A stretch of DNA of 47,975 nt from Candidatus Doudnabacteria bacterium (GCA_019659055.1 JAIFWV010000005.1:1-47975), one strand, 5' to 3'; positions 2,188 to 31,812 are shown, numbered from the stretch's first letter. Numbers and translations are program-made. Notes: generated by a model from the sequence alone, not told the origin.

Positions 2188-2802
2188 ATGCAAAGAGATT
2201 ATAAATTGGGTGCGCTGGCAGGGTTTCTCACAGGAATCTGTTTGGTACCGACCGCCTGGAATATTGGCACGATCGGAGGTATCAACTTACAGAATCCGGT
2301 ATTGATTATTATATTGCCTCTTGTCTCACTGGTTGGCATTGTCTTTGGCATCTGGCTTGGCAAGATTTTGGGCCGGGCCATACCAGTCGTCACACAGATT
2401 AGCAAGTTTGCGGCTGTGGGCTTCCTCAATACGGCCATAAACTTCGCCGTGCTCAATATATTGAGTATTATCACCGGCCAGGCTGCTGGGCTTTCGGTGG
2501 GCGAATACAACATCCCCGCCACAGCTGTGGCCGCGACCAATAGTTATTTTTGGAATAAATACTGGGTGTTCAAAGGTGTCAGCCGCGGATCAGCCAGTGA
2601 CCCGGTGAAATTTTTTATCGTAACAGCTATTGGTCTGCTGGCGCGCAGTGGCGTGCTCTACTTTGTGACGACATTTGTCTCGCATGGTGATCTGAGCAAG
2701 ACTGCATGGCTCAATGTCGCCAATGTCTTAGCCACACTCGTTGGGATCATGGTGGATTACCTCGGTTATAAATTTTTGGTGTTTGTTAGAAAAAGTAGGT
2801 AA
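2188..2802 (+). CDS. GtrA family membrane protein
   Basis: KFAAVGFLNTAINFAVLN, NSYFWNKYWVF, LGYKFLVF. Confidence 0.85.
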   Translation: MQRDYKLGALAGFLTGICLVPTAWNIGTIGGINLQNPVLIIILPLVSLVGIVFGIWLGKILGRAIPVVTQISKFAAVGFLNTAINFAVLNILSIITGQAAGLSVGEYNIPATAVAATNSYFWNKYWVFKGVSRGSASDPVKFFIVTAIGLLARSGVLYFVTTFVSHGDLSKTAWLNVANVLATLVGIMVDYLGYKFLVFVRKSR

Positions 2803-2855
2803 CTTGTTTTGCTACCTTTTGTGCAGACGAAAGGTAGCACCGAAATAAAAAAAAT

Positions 2856-2888
2856 AGGCGCGTCGGGTCCCAGTGACCTGACGCGCCT
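2856..2888 (-). terminator. Intrinsic terminator of the minus-strand DUF5715-like gene
   Basis: AGGCGCGTCGGGTC-ccagt-GACCTGACGCGCCT stem with an A-run on its left (U-tract on minus strand). Confidence 0.7.
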
Positions 2889-2899
2889 TTGTGTATTGG

Positions 2900-3664
2900 C
2901 TATTTTTGACCGAGAGAAATCGCGGTCATCTGTTGTTTTACAGTTTCGTAGTAAGCGGCAAGCTCAGCGTGCGCTTGCGGCAGAGCAATCACATGGAAAG
3001 CTGATTGCGGATGGGTCTCCTTGAAGTAGATTGCCACTCCGAGGTTGGTCAGCTCGGCTAAGTAGCTCTCTAGGATTTTTTGCTGTTCGAGTGGCATGCC
3101 CATGCGTGTGATATCGAAGGCCAGGCCAAAGACGTGAGTCGGAGGGACTTTCATCTTGAGGACATTGGCTGTGGGATTGCCGCGCATGAGCCGAAGCTGG
3201 TATTTCCACGAGCGCACGAGACTGGTCACCTCAGAGGACCCTGTGCCCTGCATATGGTCGCAGATGCGGAGCAAGAGTCCAGCGGCGGCCGGCCGCAGAC
3301 CGTAATAGTATCCGCGGTGCGGGAGATCTTTTTCGGCGATGGGCCACTTGCCCGATTTCCGCAGACTCATGCCGCAAATACCGATAATGTCGCTCACATC
3401 CACGAGCTCGTGCCTATCCCAAGCCAGCTTCAGCGCCTTGAAGTCCGCAATCCAGAACTGCTGGCGGACTTGGGGTGTAAAGATTCCCCAGAGCTGAGCT
3501 TTCTTGGTGAGAGTGAGGTACGAGGTGTCGAGCGGTACCGGGGGCGGTGGAGCCAGCGGAAGCTTCACAGCAGTTCCGGGCGGGAGTACCAGGGGAGGAG
3601 GCGATTGTTCAGCCATCCCCTGCAGACCTGCGATTGCAAAAATCGCTGCAAGTAAAACAGCCAT
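2900..3664 (-). CDS. Secreted DUF5715-like protein (Hedgehog/DD-peptidase, M15-like fold)
   Basis: Signal peptide, Pro-rich linker, then LRP..., VTSLVR..YQ.RL..GN, H..G.AFDI, E..QSAFHV; SD GGAGG. Confidence 0.7.
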   Translation of the reverse strand: MAVLLAAIFAIAGLQGMAEQSPPPLVLPPGTAVKLPLAPPPPVPLDTSYLTLTKKAQLWGIFTPQVRQQFWIADFKALKLAWDRHELVDVSDIIGICGMSLRKSGKWPIAEKDLPHRGYYYGLRPAAAGLLLRICDHMQGTGSSEVTSLVRSWKYQLRLMRGNPTANVLKMKVPPTHVFGLAFDITRMGMPLEQQKILESYLAELTNLGVAIYFKETHPQSAFHVIALPQAHAELAAYYETVKQQMTAISLGQK

Positions 3665-3734
3665 AAGGCCTCCATTTTGGTTTTTGTGTCAGGTGCGAAA
3701 ACCGATACTTTCATTCTATGCCTTTCCTATGCTC

Positions 3735-3763
3735 TTTACAAATGCCGGCGTTTAGTGTAATAT
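3735..3763 (+). promoter_or_regulatory. Putative sigma70 promoter
   Basis: TTTACA-N17-TAATAT upstream of small ORF 3796. Confidence 0.45.
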
Positions 3764-3795
3764 GTGCTGTTGGTCAACACACATGAGGAGGATAC

Positions 3796-3954
3796 TTGAG
3801 AAGATTGTTGGAAGAATTGCGAAAGTTGTTTGCGGGCCGTTTCAGCGATCGTCGCGTGACCCGTGAGACGGTCGTGTATTACGATGATCTGGAAAGCCAG
3901 GACATCCTCAGCACGAAGGCAGCGCTTTCGCCCAAGGGCCTGCAGAGACTCTAG
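3796..3954 (+). CDS. Small hypothetical protein, 52 aa (not in ORF track)
   Basis: SD GAGGAGG, TTG start, MRRLLEELRKLFAGRF...; flanked by a promoter and a terminator. Confidence 0.55.
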   Translation: MRRLLEELRKLFAGRFSDRRVTRETVVYYDDLESQDILSTKAALSPKGLQRL

Positions 3955-3984
3955 AGTTCGCCACCCCACCTCTCTCTATTTGCC

Positions 3985-4017
3985 AGGATCCGCTTAAGCC
4001 CGGGTCCTTTTTCTTTT
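3985..4017 (+). terminator. Intrinsic terminator
   Basis: AGGATCCG/CGGGTCCT stem followed by TTTTCTTTT. Confidence 0.7.
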
Positions 4018-4022
4018 GTAAG

Positions 4023-4080
4023 CATTTCGACCGGAGGGAGAAATCCCTCATCAGAGCGATCTCTCACGATGTTCGAGATG
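4023..4080. repeat. REP-like palindrome pair of the type that flanks GIY-YIG genes, here with no gene inside
   Basis: CATTTCGACCGGAGGGAGAAATC...GATCTCTCACGATGTTCGAGATG, mutually inverted arms. Confidence 0.55.
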
Positions 4081-4184
4081 GAAAATAGGCCAAATTCGTA
4101 CTTATCGCATTACACCATAAAGTACGGAAACCTGAGTTTGAGGCTTAGATAAGCCATTATTTAGGCCTACTTTGCCCTTGGCTA

Positions 4185-4226
4185 CTCCGACGTCTTAGTC
4201 GGAGCCCCGACCCGAAAGCGTCGGGG
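4185..4226. repeat. CGTC-type double palindrome
   Basis: CTCCGAC-n6-GTCGGAG abutting CCCCGAC-n8-GTCGGGG. Confidence 0.65.
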
Positions 4227-4255
4227 TTGACACAAACCCCATTTGGGTGTATACT
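4227..4255 (+). promoter_or_regulatory. Strong sigma70 promoter at head of the cassette array
   Basis: TTGACA (4227-4232) - 17 nt - TATACT (4250-4255). Confidence 0.75.
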
Positions 4256-4396
4256 TACTCGTTAACATAAAAGCTTCAAAATTTATGGTAGAAATAGGCT
4301 ATTTCAGGAAATGGCCAAAACCTCACCTTAGATTGCAGTAGTCCGGTTTTGGATTTATTTCCGAAGCCGGACTTTTGTATAGTCACTTTCTAATTA

Positions 4397-4442
4397 TTCT
4401 CGCCCGCTTGCGGGAGAGATGGCCGAAGGCCAGAGAGGGTGG
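4397..4442. repeat. DUF559-type REP, left-arm orientation
   Basis: TTCTCGCCCGCTTGCGGGAGAGATGGCCGAAGGCCAGAGAGGG. Confidence 0.6.
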
Positions 4443-4564
4443 CTTCCAGGATGTTGGGCACTACTGGGTTTAAGAGGGATAAATTCACATTTGCCCATTA
4501 ACTTATCTAGTTAGTACCCAGCATTCTGGAAGCAACGGAAACAATTTTCGAACGGAGGAGTTTG

Positions 4565-4765
4565 ATGAAGAAGTTGACTGGCTGTGCCATCATCATCGTA
4601 TATTACATCGCTTTAGCACTTGTCGTCATTTACGCAAACAGGCACTATCCAGTGACTACAGACGGCGACAAGATGTTGAGAGTTATCTGGACAACGTTCG
4701 GCGTACTGGTTCCGTTCGCGGTGGCTGCCTGGCGTAGTACCCGTTTGGAGCCGCCTCGCCAATAG
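4565..4765 (+). CDS. Small two-TM hypothetical protein
   Basis: SD GGAGGAG then ATG 4565; two hydrophobic segments. Confidence 0.7.
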   Translation: MKKLTGCAIIIVYYIALALVVIYANRHYPVTTDGDKMLRVIWTTFGVLVPFAVAAWRSTRLEPPRQ

Positions 4766-4847
4766 GCGAGTGTTAAGAGGAGCGCGATTAGCTATAAAGG
4801 TTTCGCTCTCTTCTCCACTTCAGAAGTCTTCTCAGGAGGTGCGCAAG

Positions 4848-5027
4848 ATGGCGAAGAAATTCCAAATGAGGGCTCAGGTCACCACTTATGTGGGCGACAA
4901 GCTGGTCACACGGCATGTCGTCTATGTCAACGGCGTCTGGCGCGACAAGGCCGGCGAGATCTACTCGGATCGCTTCGTCGATTTCTGCCGGCGGCAGACC
5001 ACTGCAGCTAAGGCGGCGCGGCGCTAG
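4848..5027 (+). CDS. Small basic hypothetical protein
   Basis: SD AGGAGGT, ATG 4848 (MAKKFQMRAQV...). Confidence 0.7.
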   Translation: MAKKFQMRAQVTTYVGDKLVTRHVVYVNGVWRDKAGEIYSDRFVDFCRRQTTAAKAARR

Positions 5028-5177
5028 GTTCCAGAGGGGAAATAATTAGAATATCTTTTGTTTCCTCTCCACTATTCTGAATACTTAATTGTTGTAACAC
5101 GGATATTACCGTAAAGTTCGCTAAGCATTCAGAGTTGTGGAAGCACTACAGCTTTCCAGGTTTTCAGGAGGAGTTCG

Positions 5178-5684
5178 ATGCAGTTGACAAAAGGCATGTA
5201 TGGACACCAGTTCCGCAACGCAAGCCGCATGTACGGGCTTTCATGCGGACAGATGCGCGGCGACGATATGGTCCATAACGGCGGCTGGTACAATGCTGCC
5301 GGGGAAAAGCTCGGCTGGGGCGACCTGTCTCGCCAGGACTTCGAACGAATTTCGTCCGAAATCGAAGAGGGCGAGATCTTCGTGGTCCTATACGAGGGCG
5401 ACGCGTTCTGGAAGTTCGTTACGCACAATCCTGGAATTATCGGGAGCATGTGCAAGACGAGGCCGGACGCGGAAGCTCCGGGAGTTGATTATGTCGCCCA
5501 GAAAGCGGCATGGATCATCACTCGCGGCAAGGTCTTCCATGTCAGCGACTACAGCGAGAGGCTCGGCCCGGAGACACATCGACGCAACGGCATGGCGTTT
5601 GAGCTGACTAACCGGTCTGCTGCCAATACGCTCATCCGTACCACAGCACTCAGGTACGGGAAGGGCGCAGAAACGATCATGTAA
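5178..5684 (+). CDS. Hypothetical protein (HNGGWYN..GEKLGWGDL motif)
   Basis: SD AGGAGGAG; natural-looking globular sequence; function not recognised. Confidence 0.8.
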   Translation: MQLTKGMYGHQFRNASRMYGLSCGQMRGDDMVHNGGWYNAAGEKLGWGDLSRQDFERISSEIEEGEIFVVLYEGDAFWKFVTHNPGIIGSMCKTRPDAEAPGVDYVAQKAAWIITRGKVFHVSDYSERLGPETHRRNGMAFELTNRSAANTLIRTTALRYGKGAETIM

Positions 5685-5867
5685 GATCAGACCTACCGCA
5701 CAGCTCGATCGAGCAGTGCATGAGTCCCCACTTATAGGCGACAAGCCAAGAGGAGTTGATGCAAATCACTCCTCTCCACCTCAGAAGCCATGAATCGTGA
5801 GACATGAATCGTAAATCGTCTCACGCATCACGCTATACGTATCACAACTTGTGATGTGGAGGCAGAT

Positions 5868-5957
5868 ATGAAGAAACGGCCGCAGAAAATACCGCGCAAG
5901 ATTCCTCGGCCAAAGCGGATACGCATCCAGTCGTACACACTCAGCTGGATCAAATAG
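5868..5957 (+). CDS. 29-aa Lys/Arg/Pro-rich peptide (not in ORF track)
   Basis: SD GGAGG, MKKRPQKIPRKIPRPKRIRIQSYTLSWIK; its stop overlaps the next gene's SD. Confidence 0.5.
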   Translation: MKKRPQKIPRKIPRPKRIRIQSYTLSWIK

Positions 5958-5971
5958 GAGGAGTTCGAAAG

Positions 5972-6292
5972 ATGGCATTTAGCCCCGACCGACAGGAGCG
6001 CCTGCGCCGGATCATCGAAGCACATTTGGACGATGATCCGTGGGACGCAAGCCTTGAGCCCACGAGGAGGAATTCGATGGCCGGATTCGCTAACTACACC
6101 GGCGGGCACATCAGCGACGAGACCTTAGGTTACTACGCTGACGGTCTGCTCACTCCAGACGAATTCGACAAGACTCGCGCGCACATCAAGCATTGCGTAC
6201 CGTGCGAGTGGAAAATGCACAACTACGAGGAATACCTGGATATCGATTCGGCCAAGCGGAAATTCCACTGGACGAATCAGCAGCTATCATAA
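5972..6292 (+). CDS. zf-HC2 (anti-sigma-type zinc finger) domain protein
   Basis: H.S.E.LGYY.DG.L.......AHIKHCVPC = HxxxCxxC motif; SD AGGAGGAG. Confidence 0.75.
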   Translation: MAFSPDRQERLRRIIEAHLDDDPWDASLEPTRRNSMAGFANYTGGHISDETLGYYADGLLTPDEFDKTRAHIKHCVPCEWKMHNYEEYLDIDSAKRKFHWTNQQLS

Positions 6293-6323
6293 CCTTCCGC
6301 ACTGGCGTTCCGCTAGTGCAAAA

Positions 6324-6367
6324 CCCTCTCTGTCGCTTCGCGACATCTCTCCCACAAGGGGAGAGAA
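6324..6367. repeat. DUF559-type REP, right-arm orientation
   Basis: CCCTCTCTGTCGCTTCGCGACATCTCTCCCACAAGGGGAGAGAA; inverse of the 4397-4442 arm. Confidence 0.65.
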
Positions 6368-6397
6368 TAAAGTGAGATGACGATTGGGCCCACCAGT

Positions 6398-6464
6398 CGA
6401 GCAGTCTGCAATATAGATTGCTCGCCCTTCCAAAGAGTTTCAAATCTGGAACTTTGTGGAAGGG
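6398..6464 (+). repeat. Divergent abutting double-hairpin spacer (R0)
   Basis: CGAGCAGTCT/AGATTGCTCG hairpin directly followed by CCCTTCCA-AAGAGTTTCAAATCTGGAACTTTG-TGGAAGGG; inner part resembles R2/R6. Confidence 0.6.
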
Positions 6465-6514
6465 AATAGCAAGAGCACGATAAACCAACACTGTCAGATG
6501 TGAGGAGGTTTGCG

Positions 6515-6718
6515 ATGAGAATGATCGTTGCCGTGAGTGCGCCGGGATTGCCGCCGACACCTCCGTTTGGGGGACTGGAGGGGCATCTGGTCGAAGTCGG
6601 CCAGGTGGACGACACGGTGGAAGCCGGCGTCGTCGCCCTCGAAAAGGTCCAGGCCGAATGGGACCTGCCGACGCCCGTGATGAAGGTTACGGGGTTCCGT
6701 CTCAAGAGCCGCAACTAG
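6515..6718 (+). CDS. Small hypothetical protein
   Basis: SD GAGGAGGT, ATG 6515. Confidence 0.65.
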   Translation: MRMIVAVSAPGLPPTPPFGGLEGHLVEVGQVDDTVEAGVVALEKVQAEWDLPTPVMKVTGFRLKSRN

Positions 6719-6906
6719 TTTCTTTAGGAAAGGATCACTAGCGAAATAGCAAAATGACGTCTTGATCGAGCAGACGGTTCAAATCGATCTGGCTTGCCGG
6801 AACAGCCACATAAAATTGAAAAAATCCGGAATTGTGCGCGTCTACCTGATGGAGGATTACATGTCGCGTATATAACTGCCGCCTGCAAGGGCGCCAGAAC
6901 TGAATA

Positions 6907-6979
6907 GGGGATCTCTCGCCAAGATCCCCACCTTTCTCGAGAGTTTGAGTCGATCCTGATTCCAACTTTCAAGTTTGGT
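6907..6979 (+). repeat. Conserved double-hairpin cassette spacer R1
   Basis: GGGGATCT/AGATCCCC hairpin + core ACCTTTCTCGAG (6930-6941) ... TTCAAGTTTGGT. Confidence 0.85.
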
Positions 6980-7004
6980 AGCCGTTCTTTACAAGGAGAG
7001 TCAA

Positions 7005-7835
7005 GTGAGAAAGACATTGTCAGTAGTCGCGTTGGTTCTTTGCTCGTCGTACGCCGCTGTCGCGCAGGACAAGATTCGGGTTTCCGCAACTGTCGAGACG
7101 ACCACCTCACAAGTGATCAGCTCCTCAGCCAAGAGCGAGAACGCCGGCATCGAGTTCCTGCCGTCGCGCTGGGTCACTTCCCAGCAGATCATGACGATCA
7201 CGACCGCACCCACTAAGAAGCTCAGCGCGGCTGTTCGGTTCAATCTCGCCGGTTCCGCGGAGAATCCGCCGGTCGACCGGGATCCCAAAACTGGGGTCGA
7301 GTACCGCGTGCAAGATCTGCGATCGTACTCGGGCGAGAACCGCTTGTTCGAGGCCTCGGCCGCTTACAAGGTCTGGCGGCAGGTTTCGGCCGTCGGCGGG
7401 TACACAAGACTGTCGCTTGCCGGCAGGTACGAAAATACCATTCCCTACGGCTACTACGACGGGGGATTGGTGACTACCTACTCCGAGAGACAGACGTACC
7501 GGGGCATCGAGCTCGGCGCACGTTCGGATTTTGCGATTCGCGGCCTTACCCTCGAGCCGGAATTTCTGCTCTACCCGCGTATCAGCCGGAACTTCCGTTC
7601 GCACCAGAACTACCTCGGCCATGTCTACGACAACGACATCGACCAGAACACTGGCCGGCGCGTGGGAATGCAGATGAGCGGACGGGCAAAGTATGCTCTG
7701 GTCCGACACCTCGCGGCGACGTTCTCCTACAACCTCCAGGTCATCCGAACCACGAACAAAGTCATGTTCGGCGGTCCGGCGCGGGAGAGCTTAAAGACTC
7801 GCACCGCCATGGTCGGTCTGCAGGTCGGGTTCTAA
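7005..7835 (+). CDS. Secreted protein with outer-membrane beta-barrel features
   Basis: GTG start after SD AAGGAG; signal peptide; alternating amphipathic strands; C-terminal ...VGLQVGF. Confidence 0.65.
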   Translation: MRKTLSVVALVLCSSYAAVAQDKIRVSATVETTTSQVISSSAKSENAGIEFLPSRWVTSQQIMTITTAPTKKLSAAVRFNLAGSAENPPVDRDPKTGVEYRVQDLRSYSGENRLFEASAAYKVWRQVSAVGGYTRLSLAGRYENTIPYGYYDGGLVTTYSERQTYRGIELGARSDFAIRGLTLEPEFLLYPRISRNFRSHQNYLGHVYDNDIDQNTGRRVGMQMSGRAKYALVRHLAATFSYNLQVIRTTNKVMFGGPARESLKTRTAMVGLQVGF

Positions 7836-7879
7836 ACGCTGCTCAAATCGCATTCGTGCGACACGAGCGCGTGGTTTCC

Positions 7880-7955
7880 GACCAGCCCCAGTTTTATTAA
7901 CTGGAGCTGGTCACCTTTCTTGAGAGTTCCAATCAATGGAACTTTCACGATTGGT
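7880..7955 (+). repeat. Conserved double-hairpin cassette spacer R2
   Basis: GACCAGC..CCAG/CTGG..GCTGGTC hairpin + core ACCTTTCTTGAG (7913-7924) ... ATTGGT. Confidence 0.85.
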
Positions 7956-7966
7956 AGGAGGATCAA

Positions 7967-8401
7967 ATGCTTTTTGAACTTTTTGTAGTTGTGCTCGTCA
8001 TGAACGTGCTCGCTCAATTCGCTGCAACGCGCAGCAATCGGACTGAGCGGATCCTCGGAATCGGTGCTGCGATCACCCTTGCATCTCTGTTGGGCGGGGT
8101 AGCCAATTATATGGACGAATCCAGAAAGAGGAGTGCAATAATCGACCAGCTCGACGCTATGACAAACCAGACCGCAGATGTCGTTGCGGTGGAACCCATT
8201 GCCGCCAAGCACTATGTGCTGCTTCGGCACCGCATCCTCGAGATCGACGGCAAGAAGCTGGATCTGGTGATAGGCAAGTACATGCAAATGCAAACCGACC
8301 AGTCCGAGTGGGTTTACGCCCTTCCGCGCTGGGCGGCGTCCGGGCGGATTGTCGACCACGGTTACCCGTACGAAGCGGGGCCTGCTAAAGACTCGCGTTA
8401 G
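7967..8401 (+). CDS. Hypothetical membrane protein (two N-terminal TM segments)
   Basis: SD AGGAGG; hydrophobic N-terminus, soluble C-terminus. Confidence 0.75.
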   Translation: MLFELFVVVLVMNVLAQFAATRSNRTERILGIGAAITLASLLGGVANYMDESRKRSAIIDQLDAMTNQTADVVAVEPIAAKHYVLLRHRILEIDGKKLDLVIGKYMQMQTDQSEWVYALPRWAASGRIVDHGYPYEAGPAKDSR

Positions 8402-8407
8402 CGCCAA

Positions 8408-8490
8408 GTGGAGGCGAATTTCGAAAGATTTCGCTTCCACACCTTTCTTGAGGTTTCGAGTCAATCACGATTCGAGGACTCAAGATTGGT
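8408..8490 (+). repeat. Conserved double-hairpin cassette spacer R3
   Basis: GTGGAGGCGAA/TTCGCTTCCAC hairpin + core ACCTTTCTTGAG (8441-8452) ... CTCAAGATTGGT. Confidence 0.9.
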
Positions 8491-8505
8491 CCGAAGGAGG
8501 AATAC

Positions 8506-8829
8506 ATGCGGAAGATTCTGTTACTAGTTCTTATCTTTGTTTCGGCCTGCACGGCAGCTTCGGGGCCGGATTTCCGCATCAGGTGGGAAACGCAAGCTTA
8601 CGATGGCCCGTTCAAAGCCGTCGTAACTCAGGTCCAGGAGACTCTCGGGTCGATTGTCGCTGTCAACGTGCTAGTCGATCAATCTGAGCGCCGAAAATTC
8701 CAGCAGTTGGCGGCGATTGGTTCAAACCTGAAGATCGCCGATCACGTCACGTGCAGGGTCGGAACTCTAACTAATGGTATGGCCAATGACGTCGTGACTG
8801 TGTGTGTGGCAGCAACCCCGAAACAATAA
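8506..8829 (+). CDS. Putative lipoprotein
   Basis: SD AAGGAGG; MRKILLLVLIFVSAC lipobox-like signal. Confidence 0.7.
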   Translation: MRKILLLVLIFVSACTAASGPDFRIRWETQAYDGPFKAVVTQVQETLGSIVAVNVLVDQSERRKFQQLAAIGSNLKIADHVTCRVGTLTNGMANDVVTVCVAATPKQ

Positions 8830-8836
8830 GCTGTTC

Positions 8837-8919
8837 GTGGAGGCGAATTTCGAAAGATTTCGCTTCCACACCTTTCTTGAGAGTTTGAGTCAATCCTGAT
8901 TCCAACTTTCAAGTTTGGT
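8837..8919 (+). repeat. Conserved double-hairpin cassette spacer R4
   Basis: First 45 nt identical to R3; core 8870-8881; second hairpin nearly identical to R1. Confidence 0.9.
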
Positions 8920-8959
8920 GGCTGTTCTTTCAAGCGCGAGAAGCGCGATGAGGTGTGTG

Positions 8960-9229
8960 ATGGCTATCATGGGCGATGGGGGTTGGATTGTACCGCCTCG
9001 ATTCCCTTTCCCTGAACTTTCGACCGAATGGACTAAGTCCCCGGAACTACGACGGTTTTCGGTTCCAGAGGGGACCATGTACCAGAGAGATGAGTACGCT
9101 CTCTCGAAATTGCAGGCTGTTCTCCCGGTTGGCGATCGGTTGGTGCGAGATTGGCTCAGCGAAGCGAAGACACGCAGGCTTGTCGATGACCACACTCATT
9201 ATTGTCTGCTTTGGTATGCAGATAAATAA
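8960..9229 (+). CDS. Hypothetical protein (start uncertain: 8948/8960/8969)
   Basis: Open frame between spacers R4 and R5; GAGGTG precedes ATG 8960. Confidence 0.55.
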   Translation: MAIMGDGGWIVPPRFPFPELSTEWTKSPELRRFSVPEGTMYQRDEYALSKLQAVLPVGDRLVRDWLSEAKTRRLVDDHTHYCLLWYADK

Positions 9230-9277
9230 CATTGCTCAAATTGCTCATCAAAGAAGCGAAGCGAGCGTGTAATTCCT

Positions 9278-9355
9278 GACCAGTCCCAGTTTGTTAAACT
9301 GGAGCTGGTCACCTTTCTCGAGTCCCGCACATGGTGTGGGGGATTCAAGATCGGA
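9278..9355 (+). repeat. Conserved double-hairpin cassette spacer R5
   Basis: Hairpin 1 homologous to R2; core ACCTTTCTCGAG (9311-9322) ... TTCAAGATCGGA. Confidence 0.85.
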
Positions 9356-9378
9356 AACAGTATGGGAGGATTGGAAAA

Positions 9379-9741
9379 ATGAAGAAGAACTTCGTAATCG
9401 TGGGGCTGTTCTGTTTGTCGGTTGCCAGCTTGAGCTGGAACTTCAGCCAGTACCAGCACACCGGCATGCTGAAGAACGCCGCCGCGCAGTTGTCTACACT
9501 GACGACGCACTCCGAACGCAGCGAGTTCGCGATCGTCATTCCGTTTGAAGACACGCCGGTACTGATGCGCCGTGCTGATGTCGAGATCAATGGTGTGGTC
9601 GAACATCTCGTATGCGGACGCGAAAAGTATGACGCGAACGCCGACGAGAACCGGCTCTGGTTCGACGACAAGCTCGTGGCCAAGCTGGAAACCCCGATGT
9701 CGCAGTTCGGGCTGTACGAGGGCCACAAGCCCAATCGGTAG
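9379..9741 (+). CDS. Exported/membrane-anchored hypothetical protein
   Basis: SD GGGAGG; MKKNFVIVGLFCLSVASLSW signal-like N-terminus. Confidence 0.75.
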   Translation: MKKNFVIVGLFCLSVASLSWNFSQYQHTGMLKNAAAQLSTLTTHSERSEFAIVIPFEDTPVLMRRADVEINGVVEHLVCGREKYDANADENRLWFDDKLVAKLETPMSQFGLYEGHKPNR

Positions 9742-9748
9742 CAGTACG

Positions 9749-9828
9749 GTGGAGGCGAATTTCTGAAAAGATTTCGCTTCCACCCCTTTCTTGAGAGTTT
9801 CAAATTCCTTGGAACTCCGAAGTTTGGG
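9749..9828 (+). repeat. Conserved double-hairpin cassette spacer R6
   Basis: Hairpin 1 as R3/R4 (+2 nt in loop); core CCCTTTCTTGAG (9784-9795) ... AAGTTTGGG (compensatory ACC/GGT to CCC/GGG). Confidence 0.85.
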
Positions 9829-9853
9829 TGTTAGGTTCAACAGGAGGATGCAG

Positions 9854-10717
9854 ATGGACAGAAAGTTCAAAGCGTTGAGTCCGCGTGCTCGGTGGGCAGT
9901 TCGCATCAGTTCCGGCGCAGTTCTCATGAGCCTGTTGCTCATGGGGATGTGCTCCCGGAAAGAGACGCCCCAGCCGAACGTGCCGAACCCTGCTCCGCAG
10001 GCTCATCACGTCGTCCGGCGCGGCGAGTTCCTCAAGTCGATCGCACCGCAGTACCGCAACGTCAGCTGGGAGTCGATCTTGCTGGCCAACGAGCCGTACC
10101 TCAAGGGGAAATACCTCGAGACGTGCGAACCATTCTCGGCATCGTACACCAACAACAGTCGCAGGCGTGGGCTGTTCTGCAACGACCGGTTCCATCGGCC
10201 GTACGGCAACACCCTCAAACCGGGTTGGACGCTCGCCATTCCGGCCGGCACGGCGCCGCAAGACGTCGAACAGACCGTGAAGGACTACACTGATTCCGGC
10301 GACGACGTCTCGATCGTCATCGACGATTCGGGTTCCATGGCTGAGGACCGCCGCACAGTGGCACAGTTCTATCTGGCGGCGCTTCAGAAACATGGGCGCA
10401 ACATCGAAGCAGTCTATCTCTACGTCGACGGGTCGGTGCGTCGGCTCGAAGTCCCCAAAGACATCGAGTCGGAAATGCACACAAGTGGCAACATCGAGAA
10501 TACCTACGAGGCGCTGCGCACCGCGGCTGGTGACCGCCCGGACAAAATCATCCTCATCACGGATGAACCGGGGGATGACTGGCCGGCGGACTTCGGCGGC
10601 ATGAAACTGCCGCCGGTGATCGCGACTTGCCTGGCCGATCACGGCTATCACGCGTGCGAAAGTACGCTCATGAAAGTCGCGAAAGTGACTCATGGGAAAT
10701 ATGTAGCGTACAGGTAA
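9854..10717 (+). CDS. Membrane-anchored LysM-like + VWA domain protein
   Basis: TM, then HVVRRGEFLKSIA...ILLAN...LKPGWTLAIP (LysM-like, with insertion), then IVIDDSGSM (MIDAS) and IILITDE. Confidence 0.75.
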   Translation: MDRKFKALSPRARWAVRISSGAVLMSLLLMGMCSRKETPQPNVPNPAPQAHHVVRRGEFLKSIAPQYRNVSWESILLANEPYLKGKYLETCEPFSASYTNNSRRRGLFCNDRFHRPYGNTLKPGWTLAIPAGTAPQDVEQTVKDYTDSGDDVSIVIDDSGSMAEDRRTVAQFYLAALQKHGRNIEAVYLYVDGSVRRLEVPKDIESEMHTSGNIENTYEALRTAAGDRPDKIILITDEPGDDWPADFGGMKLPPVIATCLADHGYHACESTLMKVAKVTHGKYVAYR

Positions 10718-10730
10718 AGCTTGTTCATAA

Positions 10731-10922
10731 AGGGGAGTGGGATTATCATTATAGATCTCCTGCTCCTCTCTCTACTCCTGGATCGCCAATGCGATGGTAT
10801 TGGGTTCCAGAAGTAGGGCGCTCGGCACTTTGCAAAAGTACCGGCCGTAAATTTCTGCTGAAATTTCGGCCTACTCGCTCGGACCGTCGTCCTGTGCGGG
10901 TTACTTTTGCCAAGTGCCTCGC
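10731..10922 (+). other. Almost fully base-paired spacer: abutting double hairpin plus three-way junction
   Basis: Hairpins ~10731-10769 and 10770-10818; GGCACTT-T-GCAAAAGTA...TACTTTTGC-C-AAGTGCC enclosing two hairpins. Confidence 0.65.
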
Positions 10923-10954
10923 TAAGAATAAAATTGAAGTTCAAGGAGGAGATT

Positions 10955-11128
10955 GTGGTTGAAAAAACTGTCGAGATCCTGGCCACTCACAAGTTGTTGA
11001 TCATGACGCTTTATGTTGGGATCAGTTCGCTGATCCTGCTCGGCTCAGAACCTCGAAGCCTTGTTCGCAGAGCCACCTACGGCATTGCCGCGGCGGTCTG
11101 CATCGCAATCATCGTTTCCAGAATCTGA
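10955..11128 (+). CDS. Small two-TM hypothetical protein
   Basis: SD AAGGAGGAG, GTG 10955. Confidence 0.65.
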   Translation: MVEKTVEILATHKLLIMTLYVGISSLILLGSEPRSLVRRATYGIAAAVCIAIIVSRI

Positions 11129-11137
11129 GAGGACCTC

Positions 11138-11455
11138 ATGCTGACTTTAACTGTAAAGATCGTCGGGGTGTTTCTCCTCGTAGTTCTCGTGGTACTGACT
11201 GTGATCCATCCGTTTCGCTTCCGTAAGGAAGTGGCCGCCCTCAAGGACCTCGTCGATTTGAAGATTCGGGAAATGAACCGCTTGCGCCTGCAATCCGGCG
11301 GTACGTCGTTCCACATGCCGGCAGGCGGCGTCACCGACGACGCCGAGGGGGAGATCAAATCGTACTGCCGCGAAAAGGGGTACGAGATCACCTTCAACCG
11401 CGAGCAGAAGAAGATTAGCCTCGTGAAGATTCCTCAATGGAACCGTCAGAGGTAG
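11138..11455 (+). CDS. Single-TM hypothetical protein
   Basis: GAGG SD; N-terminal TM. Confidence 0.7.
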   Translation: MLTLTVKIVGVFLLVVLVVLTVIHPFRFRKEVAALKDLVDLKIREMNRLRLQSGGTSFHMPAGGVTDDAEGEIKSYCREKGYEITFNREQKKISLVKIPQWNRQR

Positions 11456-11459
11456 CACG

Positions 11460-11529
11460 GAGGAACGAGACCAGTTCTCGTTCCTCTCCATTCTCGCAAG
11501 TTCAAAAAATTTGAGCCTGGGAGAATGGA
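11460..11529 (+). repeat. Divergent abutting double-hairpin spacer
   Basis: GAGGAACGAGA/TCTCGTTCCTC directly followed by TCCATTCTC...GAGAATGGA. Confidence 0.65.
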
Positions 11530-11581
11530 TACAGCTTCGACAAACAAAAAACCCGAGTTCTTTTCAAACTGAGAGGAATAT

Positions 11582-11926
11582 ATGTCATCAAGTGCATACG
11601 CGCGCACAACCATGGTTTTTGTCGGACCGGAACTTCTGGTCTGTCTCAACCCCGATTCTGATCCCAGACGGATGCAAACCGAACTCAACGAAGCCATTCG
11701 GCTTGAAGGTATGAAGGGCGTGAAATTCCGTCGCGGCTCCGAAATGGAAGACCGGATGTATTACTTCTATTTCCGGATCGGTAAGTTCGAATTCCGCTCA
11801 ATAGCGGCCGGAACGGAAGCCGAAAACCTCGAAAGATACGATGCTATGCGGAGGAACTACCAGCAGATTCTCGCCTCAAACGGCGAAATGAAGCTTCGCA
11901 TATTCTTGACAAGACAGGAGGCTTAG
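11582..11926 (+). CDS. Hypothetical protein
   Basis: GAGAGG SD; open frame; function not recognised. Confidence 0.7.
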   Translation: MSSSAYARTTMVFVGPELLVCLNPDSDPRRMQTELNEAIRLEGMKGVKFRRGSEMEDRMYYFYFRIGKFEFRSIAAGTEAENLERYDAMRRNYQQILASNGEMKLRIFLTRQEA

Positions 11927-11927
11927 C

Positions 11928-12188
11928 ATGGATCTGTCGCGAAGATTTATTGTTGCCGCAACCGTGCTGGTCATCTTGCCGGGCTTACCGTGGTTTGACC
12001 CGCACCGAATCGCCGCCAGATTGTTTGGGGAAATGACCCCGGATTATCCGCTGGCGATTGCATTGCTTGGACTGACCGGGGTTATCTTGGCCTTCGCCTT
12101 TGCGGCGGTGGTTGTAGAGTCCAGGGTCAAGGACAAATCACTCGGATATCTCATCGATACGATTGGCGATGAACGAAAGGATGGTTAA
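11928..12188 (+). CDS. Two-TM hypothetical protein
   Basis: SD AGGAGG; two hydrophobic segments. Confidence 0.7.
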   Translation: MDLSRRFIVAATVLVILPGLPWFDPHRIAARLFGEMTPDYPLAIALLGLTGVILAFAFAAVVVESRVKDKSLGYLIDTIGDERKDG

Positions 12189-12650
12189 ATGGGAATTTCT
12201 CTCATGCACCTGACTCCAAACGAGATAGAGATGGCGGCCGAGTTCCAGCTTACCGAAATCTTAGAGAAACATCTCGAGGATTGCGCGCATTGCCGTGCCG
12301 CGCCGGCCGAGTTCCAGCTTACCGAAATCTTAGAGAAACATCTCGAGGATTGCGCGCATTGCCGTGCCGCGCTCAACGATTATGGTCGGCGCCTCCATAG
12401 TATCGACACCAACCCACAGACAGTAGGTTCCAATGGACCCTTGTTCATCTGCCCGCCCAATTGCGGCGGCTGTGGGTTTATCGGTTACGCGCTGGAACTT
12501 GAAAAGTCGCACGACGGCGATCTGCACTGTAAGTGCGGCAAGTATCGGCTTTACCATCTCACAAGGTTTAATTTCGCGTTGTTTTCCGAAGGTCTGGATC
12601 TTCACTCGCTGACCCGCGCGACGGCCATTCTCTGGCCGCGTACCCGTTGA
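12189..12650 (+). CDS. Cys-rich protein with duplicated zf-HC2-like motif
   Basis: HLEDCAHC twice, plus CPPNCGGC and HCKC. Confidence 0.65.
   Translation: MGISLMHLTPNEIEMAAEFQLTEILEKHLEDCAHCRAAPAEFQLTEILEKHLEDCAHCRAALNDYGRRLHSIDTNPQTVGSNGPLFICPPNCGGCGFIGYALELEKSHDGDLHCKCGKYRLYHLTRFNFALFSEGLDLHSLTRATAILWPRTR
12235..12372 (+). repeat. Perfect 69-bp tandem duplication (2 copies)
   Basis: 12235-12303 identical to 12304-12372. Confidence 0.95.
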
Positions 12651-12697
12651 AGTAAATCGCAAGCTTTGGTAGGATATATAGTCAACGGGAGGTCAAC

Positions 12698-12853
12698 ATG
12701 ATACTCGCCGCCGCCTGCGCGGGGATTGGGATTATATTCCTGGTGGTGCCGGAACTGAGTGTCTGGTGCCGGGTCCTGGGAATCGTGTATATAATTCTCG
12801 CGATCGCTACGGCCGTCGCCGCTGTTTCCGAAGCAAAAAGAGGAGGACGTTAG
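12698..12853 (+). CDS. 51-aa two-TM protein (not in ORF track)
   Basis: SD GGGAGGT; MILAAACAGIGIIFLVVPELSVWCRVLGIVYIILAIATAVAAVSEAKRGGR. Confidence 0.6.
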   Translation: MILAAACAGIGIIFLVVPELSVWCRVLGIVYIILAIATAVAAVSEAKRGGR

Positions 12854-12863
12854 CACAAGAAGA

Positions 12864-12982
12864 GAGAGTGGGCAGTTAAAATTGCTCACTCTCACTCGAT
12901 TTGTTTCCATGTACCTGCCGACGAATCTGATATTTCGTTTACGAAATGTCGGATCTCCTGTTCGTCGGCAGATATATGGAAA
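12864..12982. repeat. Hairpin pair closing the island
   Basis: GAGAGTGGGCAGT/ATTGCTCACTCTC and long TTTCCAT..CTGCCGACGAA...TTCGTCGGCAG..ATGGAAA stem. Confidence 0.6.
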
Positions 12983-13064
12983 TTTTGGGACTTGTTTTAA
13001 TCCCGAATTTATGTTATAAATTATTGGTCTTAATTTTAGTTTTCAGTAATTAGAAAGGCAAGCA

Positions 13065-13259
13065 ATGGGAGTCCCCAAAAAACATAAGACCCGGTCGGGC
13101 CGGAACCAACGACGTTCGCACGATCATCTTTCTAAATCCAATCTTTCTGTTTGCAGTAACTGTAAGTTTCCGGTGCGGCCGCATGAAGCCTGCCAGAACT
13201 GCGGCTTCTACAAAGGCAAGCAGGTACTTAAGATCAAAGCAAAGACGAAAGCCAAATAA
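13065..13259 (+). CDS. rpmF: 50S ribosomal protein L32
   Basis: MGVPKKHKT...RRSH...CSNC...PHEACQNCGFYKGK. Confidence 0.97.
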   Translation: MGVPKKHKTRSGRNQRRSHDHLSKSNLSVCSNCKFPVRPHEACQNCGFYKGKQVLKIKAKTKAK

Positions 13260-13366: not shown

Positions 13367-13852
13367 ATGGCCAACAGGCATCTTTCAAGAACTATTGCTA
13401 TGCAATCCCTCTATGAGTGGGATTTCAACGACCGCACAGGCGACCTTGAGGAAATTACCAAGGTCAACGTCAAACAATTCGCTCCGGGATTGGAAGATCC
13501 TGAGTTTATTTATAATTTGGTTTCCGGTGTCCGGGAGCATATCCAAGATATAGACAAGATCATCGTGGCCACGGCGCCTGAGTGGCCGCTGGAGCAGATT
13601 ACCGTGATTGACCGGAATATTTTGCGCATTGGAATTTACGAACTTAAGTTTGCCAAAGAAGTTCCGCCAAAGGTGGCGATCAACGAGGCGGTGGAGCTGG
13701 GCAAAGCGTTTGGCGGCGAGTCATCCGGAAAATTCGTAAATGGAGTCTTGGGTACACTCTATAAAAACCTCCCGGAGGCTGAGAAAGAAAAAGGGGAAAA
13801 ACAGGAACCAGAAAACAGTAAACAGGAATCAGAAAAAACAAGCGGCGAGTAG
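13367..13852 (+). CDS. nusB: Transcription antitermination factor NusB
   Basis: [42 protein letters not shown]. Confidence 0.97.
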
Positions 13853-13932: not shown

Positions 13933-14287
13933 TCTCCTCTCCTCTCAGGAGAGGGCAGGGAGAGGTGAAAATGCAAATCGAACCAAAGTTATTAAAATAT
14001 TCAAAGAACTTAAGGCAAAATCGCAATCCGTGGGAAGCTAAGCTTTGGTATTACTTGCGCGCTCACAGGTTTTATGGGTTAAAGTTTAAAAGACAATTCG
14101 TAATAGGAGGTTATATTGTAGATTTTTATTGTCATGATAGAAAATTGGTCATTGAGCTCGATGGTGGTCAGCACTCACAAGCTCGAAGGTATGATTCTGC
14201 TAGAGATCGTTATCTCATTGAGAAGGGGAATAAGGTTCTGAGATTTTGGAATAATGACGTAGACCACCCTCTCCTGGAAGGAGAGGG
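13933..14287. mobile_element. REP-flanked DUF559 module
   Basis: CCTCTCCT/AGGAGAGG-type palindrome at 13933-13966 and CCCTCTCC-tggaa-GGAGAGGG at 14267-14287. Confidence 0.6.
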
Positions 14288-14327
14288 AATACCAAGACCA
14301 CAATCAAATTCGATTCGTATTTATTAA
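13971..14327 (+). CDS. DUF559 (Vsr-like) endonuclease, C-terminus possibly damaged
   Basis: LRQN...EAKLWYYLR, FKRQ..IG.YIVDFYC, IELDGGQH, VLRFWNNDV; frame runs straight into the downstream palindrome. Confidence 0.85.
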   Translation: MQIEPKLLKYSKNLRQNRNPWEAKLWYYLRAHRFYGLKFKRQFVIGGYIVDFYCHDRKLVIELDGGQHSQARRYDSARDRYLIEKGNKVLRFWNNDVDHPLLEGEGIPRPQSNSIRIY

Positions 14328-18226: not shown

Positions 18227-18229
18227 TTT

Positions 18230-18274
18230 TTGACAACCCGAAATCATGAGTTTATGATTTAAGGTACTATAAAC
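18230..18274 (+). promoter_or_regulatory. sigma70 promoter module, copy 1
   Basis: TTGACA-N17-TATGAT followed by TTAAGGTACTATAAAC. Confidence 0.75.
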
Positions 18275-24561: not shown

Positions 24562-24607
24562 GGGAGGAATTATCAATTATCAAAATTCAAGGTTCACCGC
24601 GCCGCCT

Positions 24608-24653
24608 TTGACAACCCGATTTTGTGGGATTATGATTTAAGGTACTTATAAAC
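24608..24653 (+). promoter_or_regulatory. sigma70 promoter module, copy 2
   Basis: TTGACA-N17-TATGAT followed by TTAAGGTACTTATAAAC; homologous to 18230-18274. Confidence 0.75.
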
Positions 24654-25211: not shown

Positions 25212-25634
25212 ATGCAATATAGCGAAGAAAGTTCAATGATCAAGGTTCAAAGTTCAAATAATGTTCAATTACCAAATGATCAAAAAACCACAAAATTTGA
25301 TCTGGAGGAACGGACGCTTAAATTTAGTAAAGAAGTTCTTGTTCTTCTAAAAATTCTGCCAAAAACAATAATAAGTATGCCTTTAATAACACAGCTCGTG
25401 AGATCCGCAACCAGTATCGGGGCAAATTGTTGCGAAGCAACCGAAGCTGGTTCAAAAAAAGACTTTATAAACAAGATCACAATCGCGAAAAAAGAAGCCA
25501 AGGAAACCAGATATTGGCTAAAGCTTATGTTAGACCTATTCCCAGCCGAGAGTTTAAAAATTCAAAAGCTGTTACAAGAAGCCCAAGAATTGAACTTAAT
25601 CCTATCAGCTATTGTCCGCAATTCAAAAAATTGA
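25212..25634 (+). CDS. Four-helix-bundle (23S rRNA IVS-like) protein; true start may be further downstream
   Basis: FDLEERT..F, QLVRSATSIGAN..EA, SKKDF.NK..IA.KEA.ET.YWL. Confidence 0.92.
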   Translation: MQYSEESSMIKVQSSNNVQLPNDQKTTKFDLEERTLKFSKEVLVLLKILPKTIISMPLITQLVRSATSIGANCCEATEAGSKKDFINKITIAKKEAKETRYWLKLMLDLFPAESLKIQKLLQEAQELNLILSAIVRNSKN

Positions 25635-31716: not shown

Positions 31717-31812
31717 ATTTCAATGTTCAAGATTCAAATTTCAAATAATTTTCAAACACCAAAAGTTCAAACATTTGAATTTTGGGTCTTGAATTTTGGG
31801 ACTTTGTAAACC

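Follow-up and report, generated by a model that had tools for sequence, protein, structure and literature searches.

The stretch of DNA considered here is a 47,975-nucleotide sequence from Candidatus Doudnabacteria bacterium (GCA_019659055.1 JAIFWV010000005.1:1-47975), hereafter called the window at its full length. Between ~3700 and 12980 it holds an island of ~9 kb made up of small co-oriented genes, and almost every spacer of this island contains an element of the same architecture: two abutting hairpins, the second of which opens with a conserved pyrimidine-rich core. An initial annotation of this DNA had described an array of six such spacers (R1-R6, within 6907-9828 on the + strand), with one unrelated gene between neighbouring elements, and had taken it for an integron-like cassette array. 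All six spacers are found at these places, and strand, folding and number of cores agree with the description; the limit of six does not hold, given that the same architecture extends through nearly the whole island. A single open reading frame (ORF) lies between each pair of neighbours, and no blastp match among these genes is better than E = 0.17.

The double hairpin and its core

Each of R1-R6 is composed of a stable, GC-rich hairpin 1, a linker of 0-1 nt, and the core CCTTTCTYGAG, with which a longer hairpin 2 opens (Table 1). The core has six exact matches in the 47,975 bases, all on the + strand and all inside these six spacers, against a chance expectation of 0.03 +/- 0.17; none of 100 shuffled sequences reached six. 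Folding recovers both hairpins in every one of the six, with z-scores relative to shuffled sequence of -3.2 to -8.0 in five and of -1.55 in R1. Hairpin 2 had been described as opening with ACC-TTT-CTYGAG, as containing a 3x3 internal loop and as closing in a typical way below a stem of three pairs. The opening and the loop stand, but the closing is less regular: R5 ends in GATCGG-A, not TTGGT, R2 carries CACG in place of CAAG, and the lower stem has two or three pairs rather than three.

Table 1. Elements, genes and other features of the island, in window coordinates
Feature	Position	Strand	Details
Island with all copies	3700-12982	+	~20 small co-oriented ORFs, mostly orphan
Double-hairpin spacer	4776-4842	+	at 4816-4842, 3' arm of hairpin 2 holds Shine-Dalgarno sequence of next ORF
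Diverged copy	5035-5141	+	hairpin 1 5035-5068; hairpin 2 5069-5141 (CCAC-TAT-TCTGAAT ... ATTCAGA-GTT-GTGG); upstream of conserved gene 5178-5684
Double-hairpin spacer	5749-5862	+	at 5779-5862, 3' arm of hairpin 2 holds Shine-Dalgarno sequence of next ORF
Diverged copy	6399-6464	+	hairpin 1 6399-6423; hairpin 2 6425-6464 (CCCTTCCAAAGAG...); E = 0.005
Conserved leader	6719-6906	+	directly 5' of R1; 4-codon mini-ORF 6861-6875
R1	6907-6979	+	hairpin 1 6907-6929; linker A; core CCTTTCTCGAG 6931-6941; hairpin 2 6930-6979; upstream of gene A1
A1	7005-7835	+	276 aa; signal peptide; ends in VGF
R2	7880-7955	+	hairpin 1 (type B) 7880-7912; core 7914-7924; hairpin 2 7913-7955
A2	7967-8401	+	144 aa
R3	8408-8490	+	hairpin 1 (type A) 8408-8440; core 8442-8452; hairpin 2 8441-8490
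A3	8506-8829	+	107 aa
R4	8837-8919	+	hairpin 1 (type A) 8837-8869; core 8871-8881; hairpin 2 8870-8919
A4	8948-9229	+	93 aa
R5	9278-9354	+	hairpin 1 (type B) 9278-9310; core 9312-9322; hairpin 2 9311-9354
A5	9379-9741	+	120 aa
R6	9749-9828	+	hairpin 1 (type A) 9749-9783; core 9785-9795; hairpin 2 9784-9828; compensated C-G pair
A6	9854-10717	+	287 aa; weak LysM match
Double-hairpin spacer after A6	10731-10818	+	hairpin 1, then TCTCTACTCCTGG...CCAGAAGTAGGG
Diverged copy	11459-11529	+	hairpin 1 11459-11487; hairpin 2 11488-11529; core CCATTCTCG; without internal loop
Island right end	12864-12982	+	hairpin 1 12864-12893; long hairpin 12903-12983, then UUUUGGG; kept in related locus L125

A covariance model of hairpin 2, run unfiltered over the window, scores R1-R6 at 57-66 bits and finds further + strand matches at 11484-11532 (E = 8.5e-5), at 6421-6468 (E = 0.005) and, weakly, at 5067-5142, with nothing convincing in the remaining ~38 kb. 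All copies with E < 1e-3 are on the + strand inside the island. The diverged copy at 11459-11529 reaches 47 bits with a later covariance model (itself named R2), of which it is a training sequence. In the other spacers between ~4770 and 12990, folding gives in nearly all cases a hairpin followed after 0-3 nt by a second hairpin with a pyrimidine-rich 5' arm.

Conservation of structure, strand and position

In an alignment of 17 copies from four genomes, which was fitted to a covariance model and so favours structure, 90.7% of hairpin-2 cells pair, 11 of the 17 pairs have changed on both sides (52 cells, against 16.5 +/- 3.5 in shuffles) and the covariation score reaches 0.50, compared with 0.20; with the partners shifted one column, pairing falls to 47-51%. 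The same picture emerges from a MAFFT alignment of the six original copies, with 90.7% of hairpin-2 cells paired and seven pairs changed on both sides, a result matched by none of 500 shuffles, and with pairing halved when the 3' partners are slid by one column. The compensatory CCC...GGG change first noticed in R6 is real in the six-copy alignment, and upper stems do differ in sequence and still pair, R5 being the extreme case in that its upper stem is wholly different in sequence with pairing kept.

Invariant sequence is found only at the base of hairpin 2, as 5' CC-UUU-CU(Y) and 3' (A)AG-WUU-GG; this base comprises two C-G pairs, a symmetric U-rich 3x3 internal loop, and then a C-G and a U-A pair. 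The spacing between the core and the 3' conserved block ranges from 22 to ~50 nt. Hairpin 1 is present in 20 of 20 elements (dG -11.6 to -25.2 kcal/mol) and ends 0-2 nt ahead of the core, while its sequence varies freely. It covaries at a position that is orthologous in three genomes, where the two arms read GGGGATCT/AGATCCCC, GGGCTGC/GCAGCCC and GGGGAGC/GCTCCCC.

The strand on which the gene sense is read folds better in 18 of the 20 elements, with a mean minimum free energy of -37.8 against -30.7 kcal/mol (Wilcoxon p = 1e-5), and hairpin 2 contains 31 G-U cells against 11 A-C cells, both of which bear out the earlier suggestion that the + strand is the functional one. All strong copies are oriented as the genes are and occupy the gap from a stop codon to the following Shine-Dalgarno sequence, none being found within an ORF or outside such arrays. 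Hairpin 1 (20-46 nt) begins 3-48 nt after the stop codon; hairpin 2 (38-69 nt) precedes the start codon by 11-52 nt, or by 139 nt in a single case, and often abuts the Shine-Dalgarno sequence, which lies 0-20 nt from its end. Structure on the sense strand, orientation with the genes and placement between stop codon and ribosome-binding site are as selection on the mRNA predicts; top-strand single-stranded DNA is formally another candidate for the folded molecule.

One form that such selection might take is a post-transcriptional regulon, in which a trans-acting RNA-binding regulator would use hairpin 2 as its operator and control the translation of all genes that carry it in a co-ordinated way; hairpin 1 would then simply be the terminator or stabiliser of the upstream gene, and no cleavage would take place. 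An invariant sequence on both strands of the hairpin 2 base, around a symmetric U-rich loop, in a hairpin that otherwise covaries is what protein-binding RNA operators typically show, and the short distance from hairpin 2 to the Shine-Dalgarno sequence points the same way, as does the recurrence of the element in a locus of another kind, beside different genes for small membrane proteins (L122 and L143). Two diverged copies go further and include the Shine-Dalgarno sequence in the 3' arm of hairpin 2, which ties hairpin 2 to translation and mRNA function and makes a role in translation control, whether through a bound protein or through coupling, a serious rival or an added function. At both places (4816-4842 and 5779-5862) the Shine-Dalgarno sequence is paired to a CUCCAC-type tract, and the predicted fold suggests that translation would be occluded there unless the hairpin opens. 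We nevertheless consider the operator rather unlikely as the whole account, in that no candidate regulator was found and the constant abutment of hairpin 1 and core would be unexplained if the two hairpins were independent.

Distribution of the element and variability of the locus

An exact-pattern scan of 185,579 species genomes returned four loci. Two of them, both in Ca. Saccharibacteria metagenome-assembled genomes, are high-scoring and carry four copies (CAZOKE010000017.1) and two copies (CAZHIA010000007.1) respectively, and a Logan contig that extends the latter locus holds a third, diverged copy. The other two, in a member of the Planctomycetaceae and in Dyadobacter, are single low-scoring matches that we attribute to chance, as we do the four loci that the strict pattern gave in JGI metagenome contigs, which score only 19-24 bits, equal to the chance genome matches. 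A third related island, with four copies, came from the contexts of genes of the family to which gene 5178-5684 belongs (L127 and L128, from JGI metagenomes); the contexts of its distant homologues (L130, L135-L137, L140-L142) carry no element, nor do the flanks of L125 and L127. Among viral contigs the loose pattern found only isolated chance matches and the strict pattern none, protein-based viral scans with A1 and the 5178 family gave none, and blastn against INPHARED phages and PLSDB plasmids gave no match. Rfam searches of the window at the gathering threshold matched only the four tRNAs, and in E-value mode on 3700-13000 yielded only two chance microRNA matches; with a negative scan for attC boxes (below), this agrees with the first impression that the element is not attC, REP or CRISPR, and it belongs to no Rfam family either. 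Outside the window, copies came to light in three Ca. Saccharibacteria assemblies, so that the family is rare and, in these searches, confined to a narrow group of Saccharibacteria.

Both L125 and L127 have groEL on one side of the island and rpmF-nusB-LTD on the other; the window agrees with them in its right flank but not in its left. Four features are common to the three islands: the TTGACA-17-TATACT region, the double hairpin 5' of gene 5178-5684 (the copy at 5035-5141), the leader with its mini-ORF, and the terminal hairpin. The hairpin 2 of the spacer after A6 is likewise kept in L127, at 11468-11511. Between the conserved parts the gene content differs, with 5178-5684 in all three islands, A1 in two (45% identity) and an 82-aa gene in the other two, and the neighbours of each shared gene differ. 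The cassette-like variability anticipated by the initial annotation is therefore found, only one or two genes being common to relatives at a fixed locus. Island GC is 53.5% against 46-48% in the flanks, and GC at third codon positions (GC3) is 0.53-0.81 against 0.31-0.62. GC content is raised above that of the flanks in all three genomes (53.5, 53.0 and 50.8% against 44.5-48%, for 2900-12900 in the window, 7800-16700 in L125 and 9100-14600 in L127), and the composition of the island genes is distinct from that of the host chromosome.

Mosaic copies

Hairpin 1 sequences of types A and B recur after unrelated genes, with similarity beginning at the 5' edge of hairpin 1, and a leader of ~45 nt ahead of R2 (7836-7879) is also present at R5. 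The hairpin 2 copies of R1 and R4 are 93.5% identical from the core to 11 nt beyond the hairpin, and R4 is a chimera whose first hairpin is that of R3/R6 and whose second is that of R1, joined at the core. In L127, a 29-nt hairpin 1 is present at two places with 100% identity and a different hairpin 2 at each, and in L125 the hairpin 2 that stands 5' of 5178 stays put though two other genes intervene. Repeat boundaries consequently lie at several places, namely the 5' edge of hairpin 1, the core, and 11 nt past hairpin 2. Hairpin-1 types are homogeneous within a genome and different between genomes. As judged from these sequences, the mosaic is consistent with repeated modules that convert one another or exchange by homologous recombination.

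Near-identical hairpins beside unrelated genes of one genome, in a modular make-up like that of BOX elements, could also be the work of a selfish miniature repeat (REP/REPIN, BOX or MITE-like) that is spread by a transposase in trans and has no role for its host. REP/BIME and BOX sequences are likewise short, structured, modular extragenic repeats, some of which stabilise mRNA between cistrons; unlike the element, however, they occur genome-wide, in both orientations and in high copy number. Here every strong copy is oriented with the genes in one island, the remaining ~38 kb of the window and the flanking sequence in L125 and L127 being free of such copies, its position relative to stop codon and Shine-Dalgarno sequence is conserved, and compensatory change keeps its structure across genomes, orthologous sites included. 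Neither an Rfam or REP match nor a transposase in the window was found, and no terminal inverted repeats or target duplications are evident on reading the element ends, for which no systematic search was made. A purely selfish origin seems to us hardly tenable.

The possibility of an integron-like recombination site

The initial annotation had as its leading inference an integron-like site. Under that interpretation hairpin 2, alone or together with hairpin 1, would fold from single-stranded DNA into a structure-specific recombination site, and a recombinase encoded elsewhere would move single-gene cassettes at the core. The resemblance to a sedentary chromosomal integron is considerable. As in arrays of attC sites, including clusters of attC sites lacking integron integrases (CALIN; PMC5027507), co-oriented, promoterless-looking, mostly orphan single-gene units are bounded by imperfect palindromes whose sequence is conserved only at the base, and the repeat types are homogeneous in a genome and differ between genomes; each palindrome has an internal unpaired spacer and a variable tip. 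The chromosomal locus is fixed, yet its relatives have only one or two genes in common with it, island GC is raised in all three genomes, the R4 chimera is joined at the core, and the synteny between L125 and L127 ends just past the core. This last observation is weak evidence, because neutral spacer sequence is saturated at the 45-68% protein identity that separates the islands.

Against this stand several observations. First, a regular-expression scan for the R''/R' boxes that define attC (RYYYAAC ... GTTRRRY; PMC5027507) found no such pair 35-130 nt apart on either strand of 2800-13000, and none in the six spacers, so that an attC site as such is rejected. On the 3' side, the base of hairpin 2 is G-W-T-Y-GG, with T or A in the second position of what would be GTT, and the AAC/GTT triplet is missing as well. 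On the general shape of an attC hairpin the picture is mixed: a 3x3 internal loop and a variable tip are present, whereas no consistently placed extrahelical bases are seen and the stem below the loop has only 2-3 bp. Second, no ORF of at least 120 aa in the window has a recombinase domain, in agreement with the earlier remark that the window contains no recombinase, and there is no recombinase match in Pfam among the called genes of L125, L127, L128 and L143. Third, it is the coding strand that folds better and uses G-T pairs, the opposite of the attC strand choice. Fourth, the repeat boundaries do not mark one crossover point, and the hairpin 2 of 5178 is in place in L125 while the downstream genes differ. 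Fifth, L127 and L128, which represent the same population in two metagenome samples, are 99.99% identical across the array. Finally, the analogy with attC leaves hairpin 1 unexplained. With no attC boxes, no integrase in four loci, a structured coding strand, several boundaries and identical arrays in two samples, the integron-like site can no longer lead, and we judge it improbable.

In its most novel form, which we likewise judge improbable, this reading makes the double hairpin the recombination site of a hitherto undescribed, structure-specific cassette system of the candidate phyla radiation, an integron analogue that would follow a site grammar of its own (a CC/UUU/CU base and an abutting hairpin 1), depend on a recombinase encoded elsewhere, and stockpile and shuffle small secreted or membrane proteins for episymbiosis. 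If an integron-like reading were true after all, the island would represent a second, independent invention of an integron-like cassette platform.

Predicted transcription signals of the island

The best sigma-70-like site of the region lies at the left end of the island (4227-4255, + strand, TTGACA-17-TATACT) and is kept in L125 and L127. A scan of the + strand from 4289 to 10907 gave no other site of this kind, and none in the spacers R1-R6, with an E. coli-type consensus that may miss promoters of this phylum. Because no + strand promoter is predicted over this range, the array genes would need read-through of hairpin 1. The element was also considered as a promoter in its own right, and this was ruled out by the missing -10/-35 pair and the variable spacing of its blocks (22 to ~50 nt); for an extracytoplasmic function (ECF)-type promoter starting from GGAACTT in the 3' arm, the would-be -10 lands on the start codon when the sequence is read.

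Hairpin 1 is GC-rich and is directly followed by a C-interrupted tail, (A)CCUUUCU(Y). This tail opens with ACC and has an invariant sequence with 4-5 U in 8 nt, not just an excess of U, so that hairpin 1 would be at most a leaky terminator. A simple terminator scan flags none of R1-R6, partly through its loop-size rule. By comparison, the long hairpin at the right end of the island, with its run of U, is likely the true terminator of the unit.

These properties bear on a simpler possibility, that the spacers hold ordinary intrinsic terminators and unrelated hairpins of 5' untranslated regions, alike only through recent local duplication. The GC-rich hairpin 1 with its 4-5 U in 8 nt would suit a terminator, and several copies in the window are recent duplicates. 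However, the scan flags 0 of 6; the tail opens with ACC and is an invariant CCUUUCU across four genomes, next to unrelated hairpins, instead of a variable U run, while the real terminators of the same genomes do have U runs; hairpin 2 covaries across genomes; and full termination would strip the downstream genes of any predicted promoter. We regard this possibility as very improbable.

Several other signals were seen along the island. A canonical terminator stands at 4340-4373, ~85 nt past the promoter at 4227-4255, in a region kept in L125 (~7887) and L127 (~9161); 4227-4373, which has no Rfam match, may be a small RNA gene or an attenuated leader that governs entry into the island. A second promoter-like site (10907-10934, TTGCCA-16-TAAAAT) lies just 5' of ORF 10955-11128, within a large conserved structure (10824-10918), and given this site the island may consist of two transcription units. 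The leader that directly precedes R1 also stands 5' of an element in L125 (13955-14200) and in L127 (10820-11027). It is non-coding apart from a mini-ORF with its own Shine-Dalgarno sequence, which reads M-S-R-I-stop in the window and M-P-R-I/L-stop in relatives, and it contains a GATCGAT...ATCGATC hairpin; it might serve for attenuation by a leader peptide or contain an internal promoter. CCUUUCU might mimic the 3' tail of 16S rRNA; the window carries no rRNA gene.

A proposed intercistronic RNA module

The explanation that we favour, and to which we give about an even chance, is that the element is a bipartite cis-acting RNA module punctuating a long multi-gene transcript of this variable island of small genes. 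The results above show its structure, conservation, strand, position and distribution; a continuous transcript, cleavage and stabilisation of that transcript, and the identity of the factor involved are what we infer. Transcription would start at the left end of the island, from the candidate promoter at 4227-4255 and possibly with the aid of the leader at 6719-6906, and would pass the spacers up to the strong terminator at ~12900-12990. Hairpin 1 with its C-interrupted, U-rich tail (A)CCUUUCU would act as a leaky terminator, as a 3' protective hairpin of the upstream cistron, or as both, and hairpin 2, close to the 5' end of the downstream cistron, would protect and insulate it. A trans-acting endoribonuclease or RNA-binding protein would recognise hairpin 2 by its invariant base (CC / UUU-WUU internal loop / CU-AG), and cutting where the two hairpins meet, or close by, would turn each gene into a message that is hairpin-capped at both ends. 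As a secondary consequence, repeated copies may recombine or convert one another, by which hairpin-1 types would be homogenised, and short homologies may help in the gain, loss and reordering of genes.

A processing and stabilisation module would explain why the two hairpins constantly abut. It is also favoured by the structure kept through covariation, by the sense strand as the structured one, by the gene-wise orientation and intercistronic position of the copies, and by the Shine-Dalgarno sequence within hairpin 2 of two diverged copies. The hairpin at the island end is much stronger than hairpin 1 and has a U run. RNase J is, in Bacillus subtilis, a 5'-3' exonuclease that is blocked by 5' hairpins, and in one relative an RNase J gene is encoded beside a homologue of A1. 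The stem-loops of the island sit between genes that are apparently co-transcribed, judging from the lack of a predicted internal promoter, and in the cip-cel operon of Ruminiclostridium intergenic stem-loops mark where the transcript is cut and stabilise the products at either end (PMC10311766). The processing or stabilising signal and the weak terminator that the initial annotation listed as secondary options thus fit the evidence better than its recombination site does. The operator considered above is compatible with this RNA module, and the two are not exclusive.

Several points weigh on the other side. No candidate nuclease or binding protein was identified; the product of gene 5178-5684 has no fold match in the PDB, and its gene is also found in genomes without the element. 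The strict invariance of CCUUUCU is not accounted for by a purely structural role. The promoter scan on which the predicted co-transcription rests depends on its E. coli-type consensus. Finally, the near-identical, genome-specific copies of hairpin 1 are a DNA-level phenomenon, for which RNA function alone is insufficient.

Comparison with known systems

RNase III sites between the early genes of phage T7 and RNase Y processing of the B. subtilis cggR-gapA message are kindred processing systems, in which stem-loops between cistrons likewise direct the cut and shield the ends that result. The T7 sites also have an internal loop within a long hairpin, but the lower stem of hairpin 2 has only 2-3 bp, which a typical RNase III site does not. 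With the cip-cel stem-loops (PMC10311766) the element has in common a place in the spacers of a long co-oriented gene series without internal promoters and, as in processing signals of that type, one hairpin placed to cap the upstream 3' end and another the downstream 5' end. It differs from such signals in that two abutting hairpins, linked by an invariant CCUUUCU, form a fixed unit, and in that this unit makes up one family across genomes and is present at nearly every spacer; cleavage, moreover, is here a prediction.

A second parallel is the promoter-early stem-loop (PeSL), a mobile regulatory cassette of T4-type phages (PMC2839356). PeSLs are repeated composite modules with a stem-loop that are concentrated in hyperplastic regions, immediately 5' of orphan genes, and end at the Shine-Dalgarno sequence; their copies recombine and leave mosaic, shuffled gene content, much as the content of the island is variable and copies of the element are chimeric. 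Yet PeSLs hold a consensus sigma-70 promoter, whereas the six spacers have no promoter-like site and a variable spacing of their blocks, and the element is cellular, at a conserved chromosomal locus, not viral, and has a second, covarying hairpin.

The kinds of element to which these comparisons lead are known, as intercistronic RNA structures and as repeated regulatory cassettes in hyperplastic regions; the well-defined variant described here is itself new, being absent from Rfam and from the literature searched. It looks like a compact, portable expression unit, in which each small gene seems to bring or acquire two hairpins, 3' and 5', linked by an invariant heptamer, in a region of fast gene turnover between relatives. 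Saccharibacteria are ultra-small episymbionts with reduced genomes; to our knowledge almost nothing is known of how they control gene expression, and cis-regulatory RNA is essentially unexplored in the phylum. If the element serves in processing and stabilisation, it would define a new family of conserved RNA motifs, be a natural insulator of cistrons, and offer a handle on the nuclease or binding protein that acts on it. Whichever reading is right, the hypervariable island that it marks codes for orphan secreted and membrane proteins, which are good candidates for interaction with the host.

Genes of the island and other features of the window

All of A1-A6 have a Shine-Dalgarno sequence of the GGAGG type, show no mutual paralogy, and are almost without database relatives. 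For A1, an indexed search of 5.8 billion proteins found no relative and an exhaustive search of 1.84 billion representative proteins found nine, of which the one adjoining the RNase J gene is on another candidate phyla radiation contig; an exact-protein look-up of A2 gave no match. The C-terminal ...VGF of A1 recalls an outer-membrane beta-barrel, which is odd for a lineage thought to have no outer membrane. Family matches among island proteins are almost absent, with a weak LysM match in A6 and weak zf-HC2 matches in two others. In one ORF (12189-12650) there is a perfect tandem duplication of 69 bp (12235-12372, with 12235-12303 identical to 12304-12372), which is in frame and doubles a 23-aa segment that includes the CxxC part of a weak, anti-sigma-like zf-HC2 match; this duplication either arose very recently or is an artefact of assembly.

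Gene 5178-5684, the only gene common to the three related islands, is one of a family with 127 members spread over the candidate phyla radiation, and its product may be considered as a candidate for the trans-acting factor. Its AlphaFold model is confident, with a pLDDT of 89.8, and a 24-residue motif (GGWYNxxGEKLGWG) resembles the C-terminal domain of RecA, the likeness being limited to those 24 residues. In L141, a locus whose gene content looks phage-like to us, a member of this family lies directly 3' of a sigma-factor gene. The left flank of the island holds a minus-strand gene of 254 aa (2900-3664) that has a weak Pfam match to DUF5715 only and no recombinase domain, and that is absent from the corresponding position in L125 and L127. 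It stands where an integron would have its integrase and might on that ground be one; read by eye, its sequence has a putative Zn-peptidase-like motif.

On its right the island is followed by rpmF (13065-13259) and nusB (13367-13852), and the rest of the window is Patescibacteria-like, with lamin-tail-domain proteins, type IV pilus genes, HU, holA and four tRNAs besides these two genes. A DUF559 (Vsr-like endonuclease) gene at 13974-14327, between nusB and the LTD gene, is flanked by inverted segments of the GGAGAGGG type, like the short hairpins of the island at ~4400 and ~6340. Two repeats were seen outside the island. One, of 40 nt and promoter-like (TTTGACAACCCGA...TATGATTTAAGGTACT), stands at 18229-18268 and 24607-24646 with 85% identity. 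The other, a TTCAA-rich repeat of 61 nt, stands at 25224-25284 and 31711-31771 with 84% identity, and one of its copies overlaps the start of a gene for a 23S-rRNA-intervening-sequence protein.

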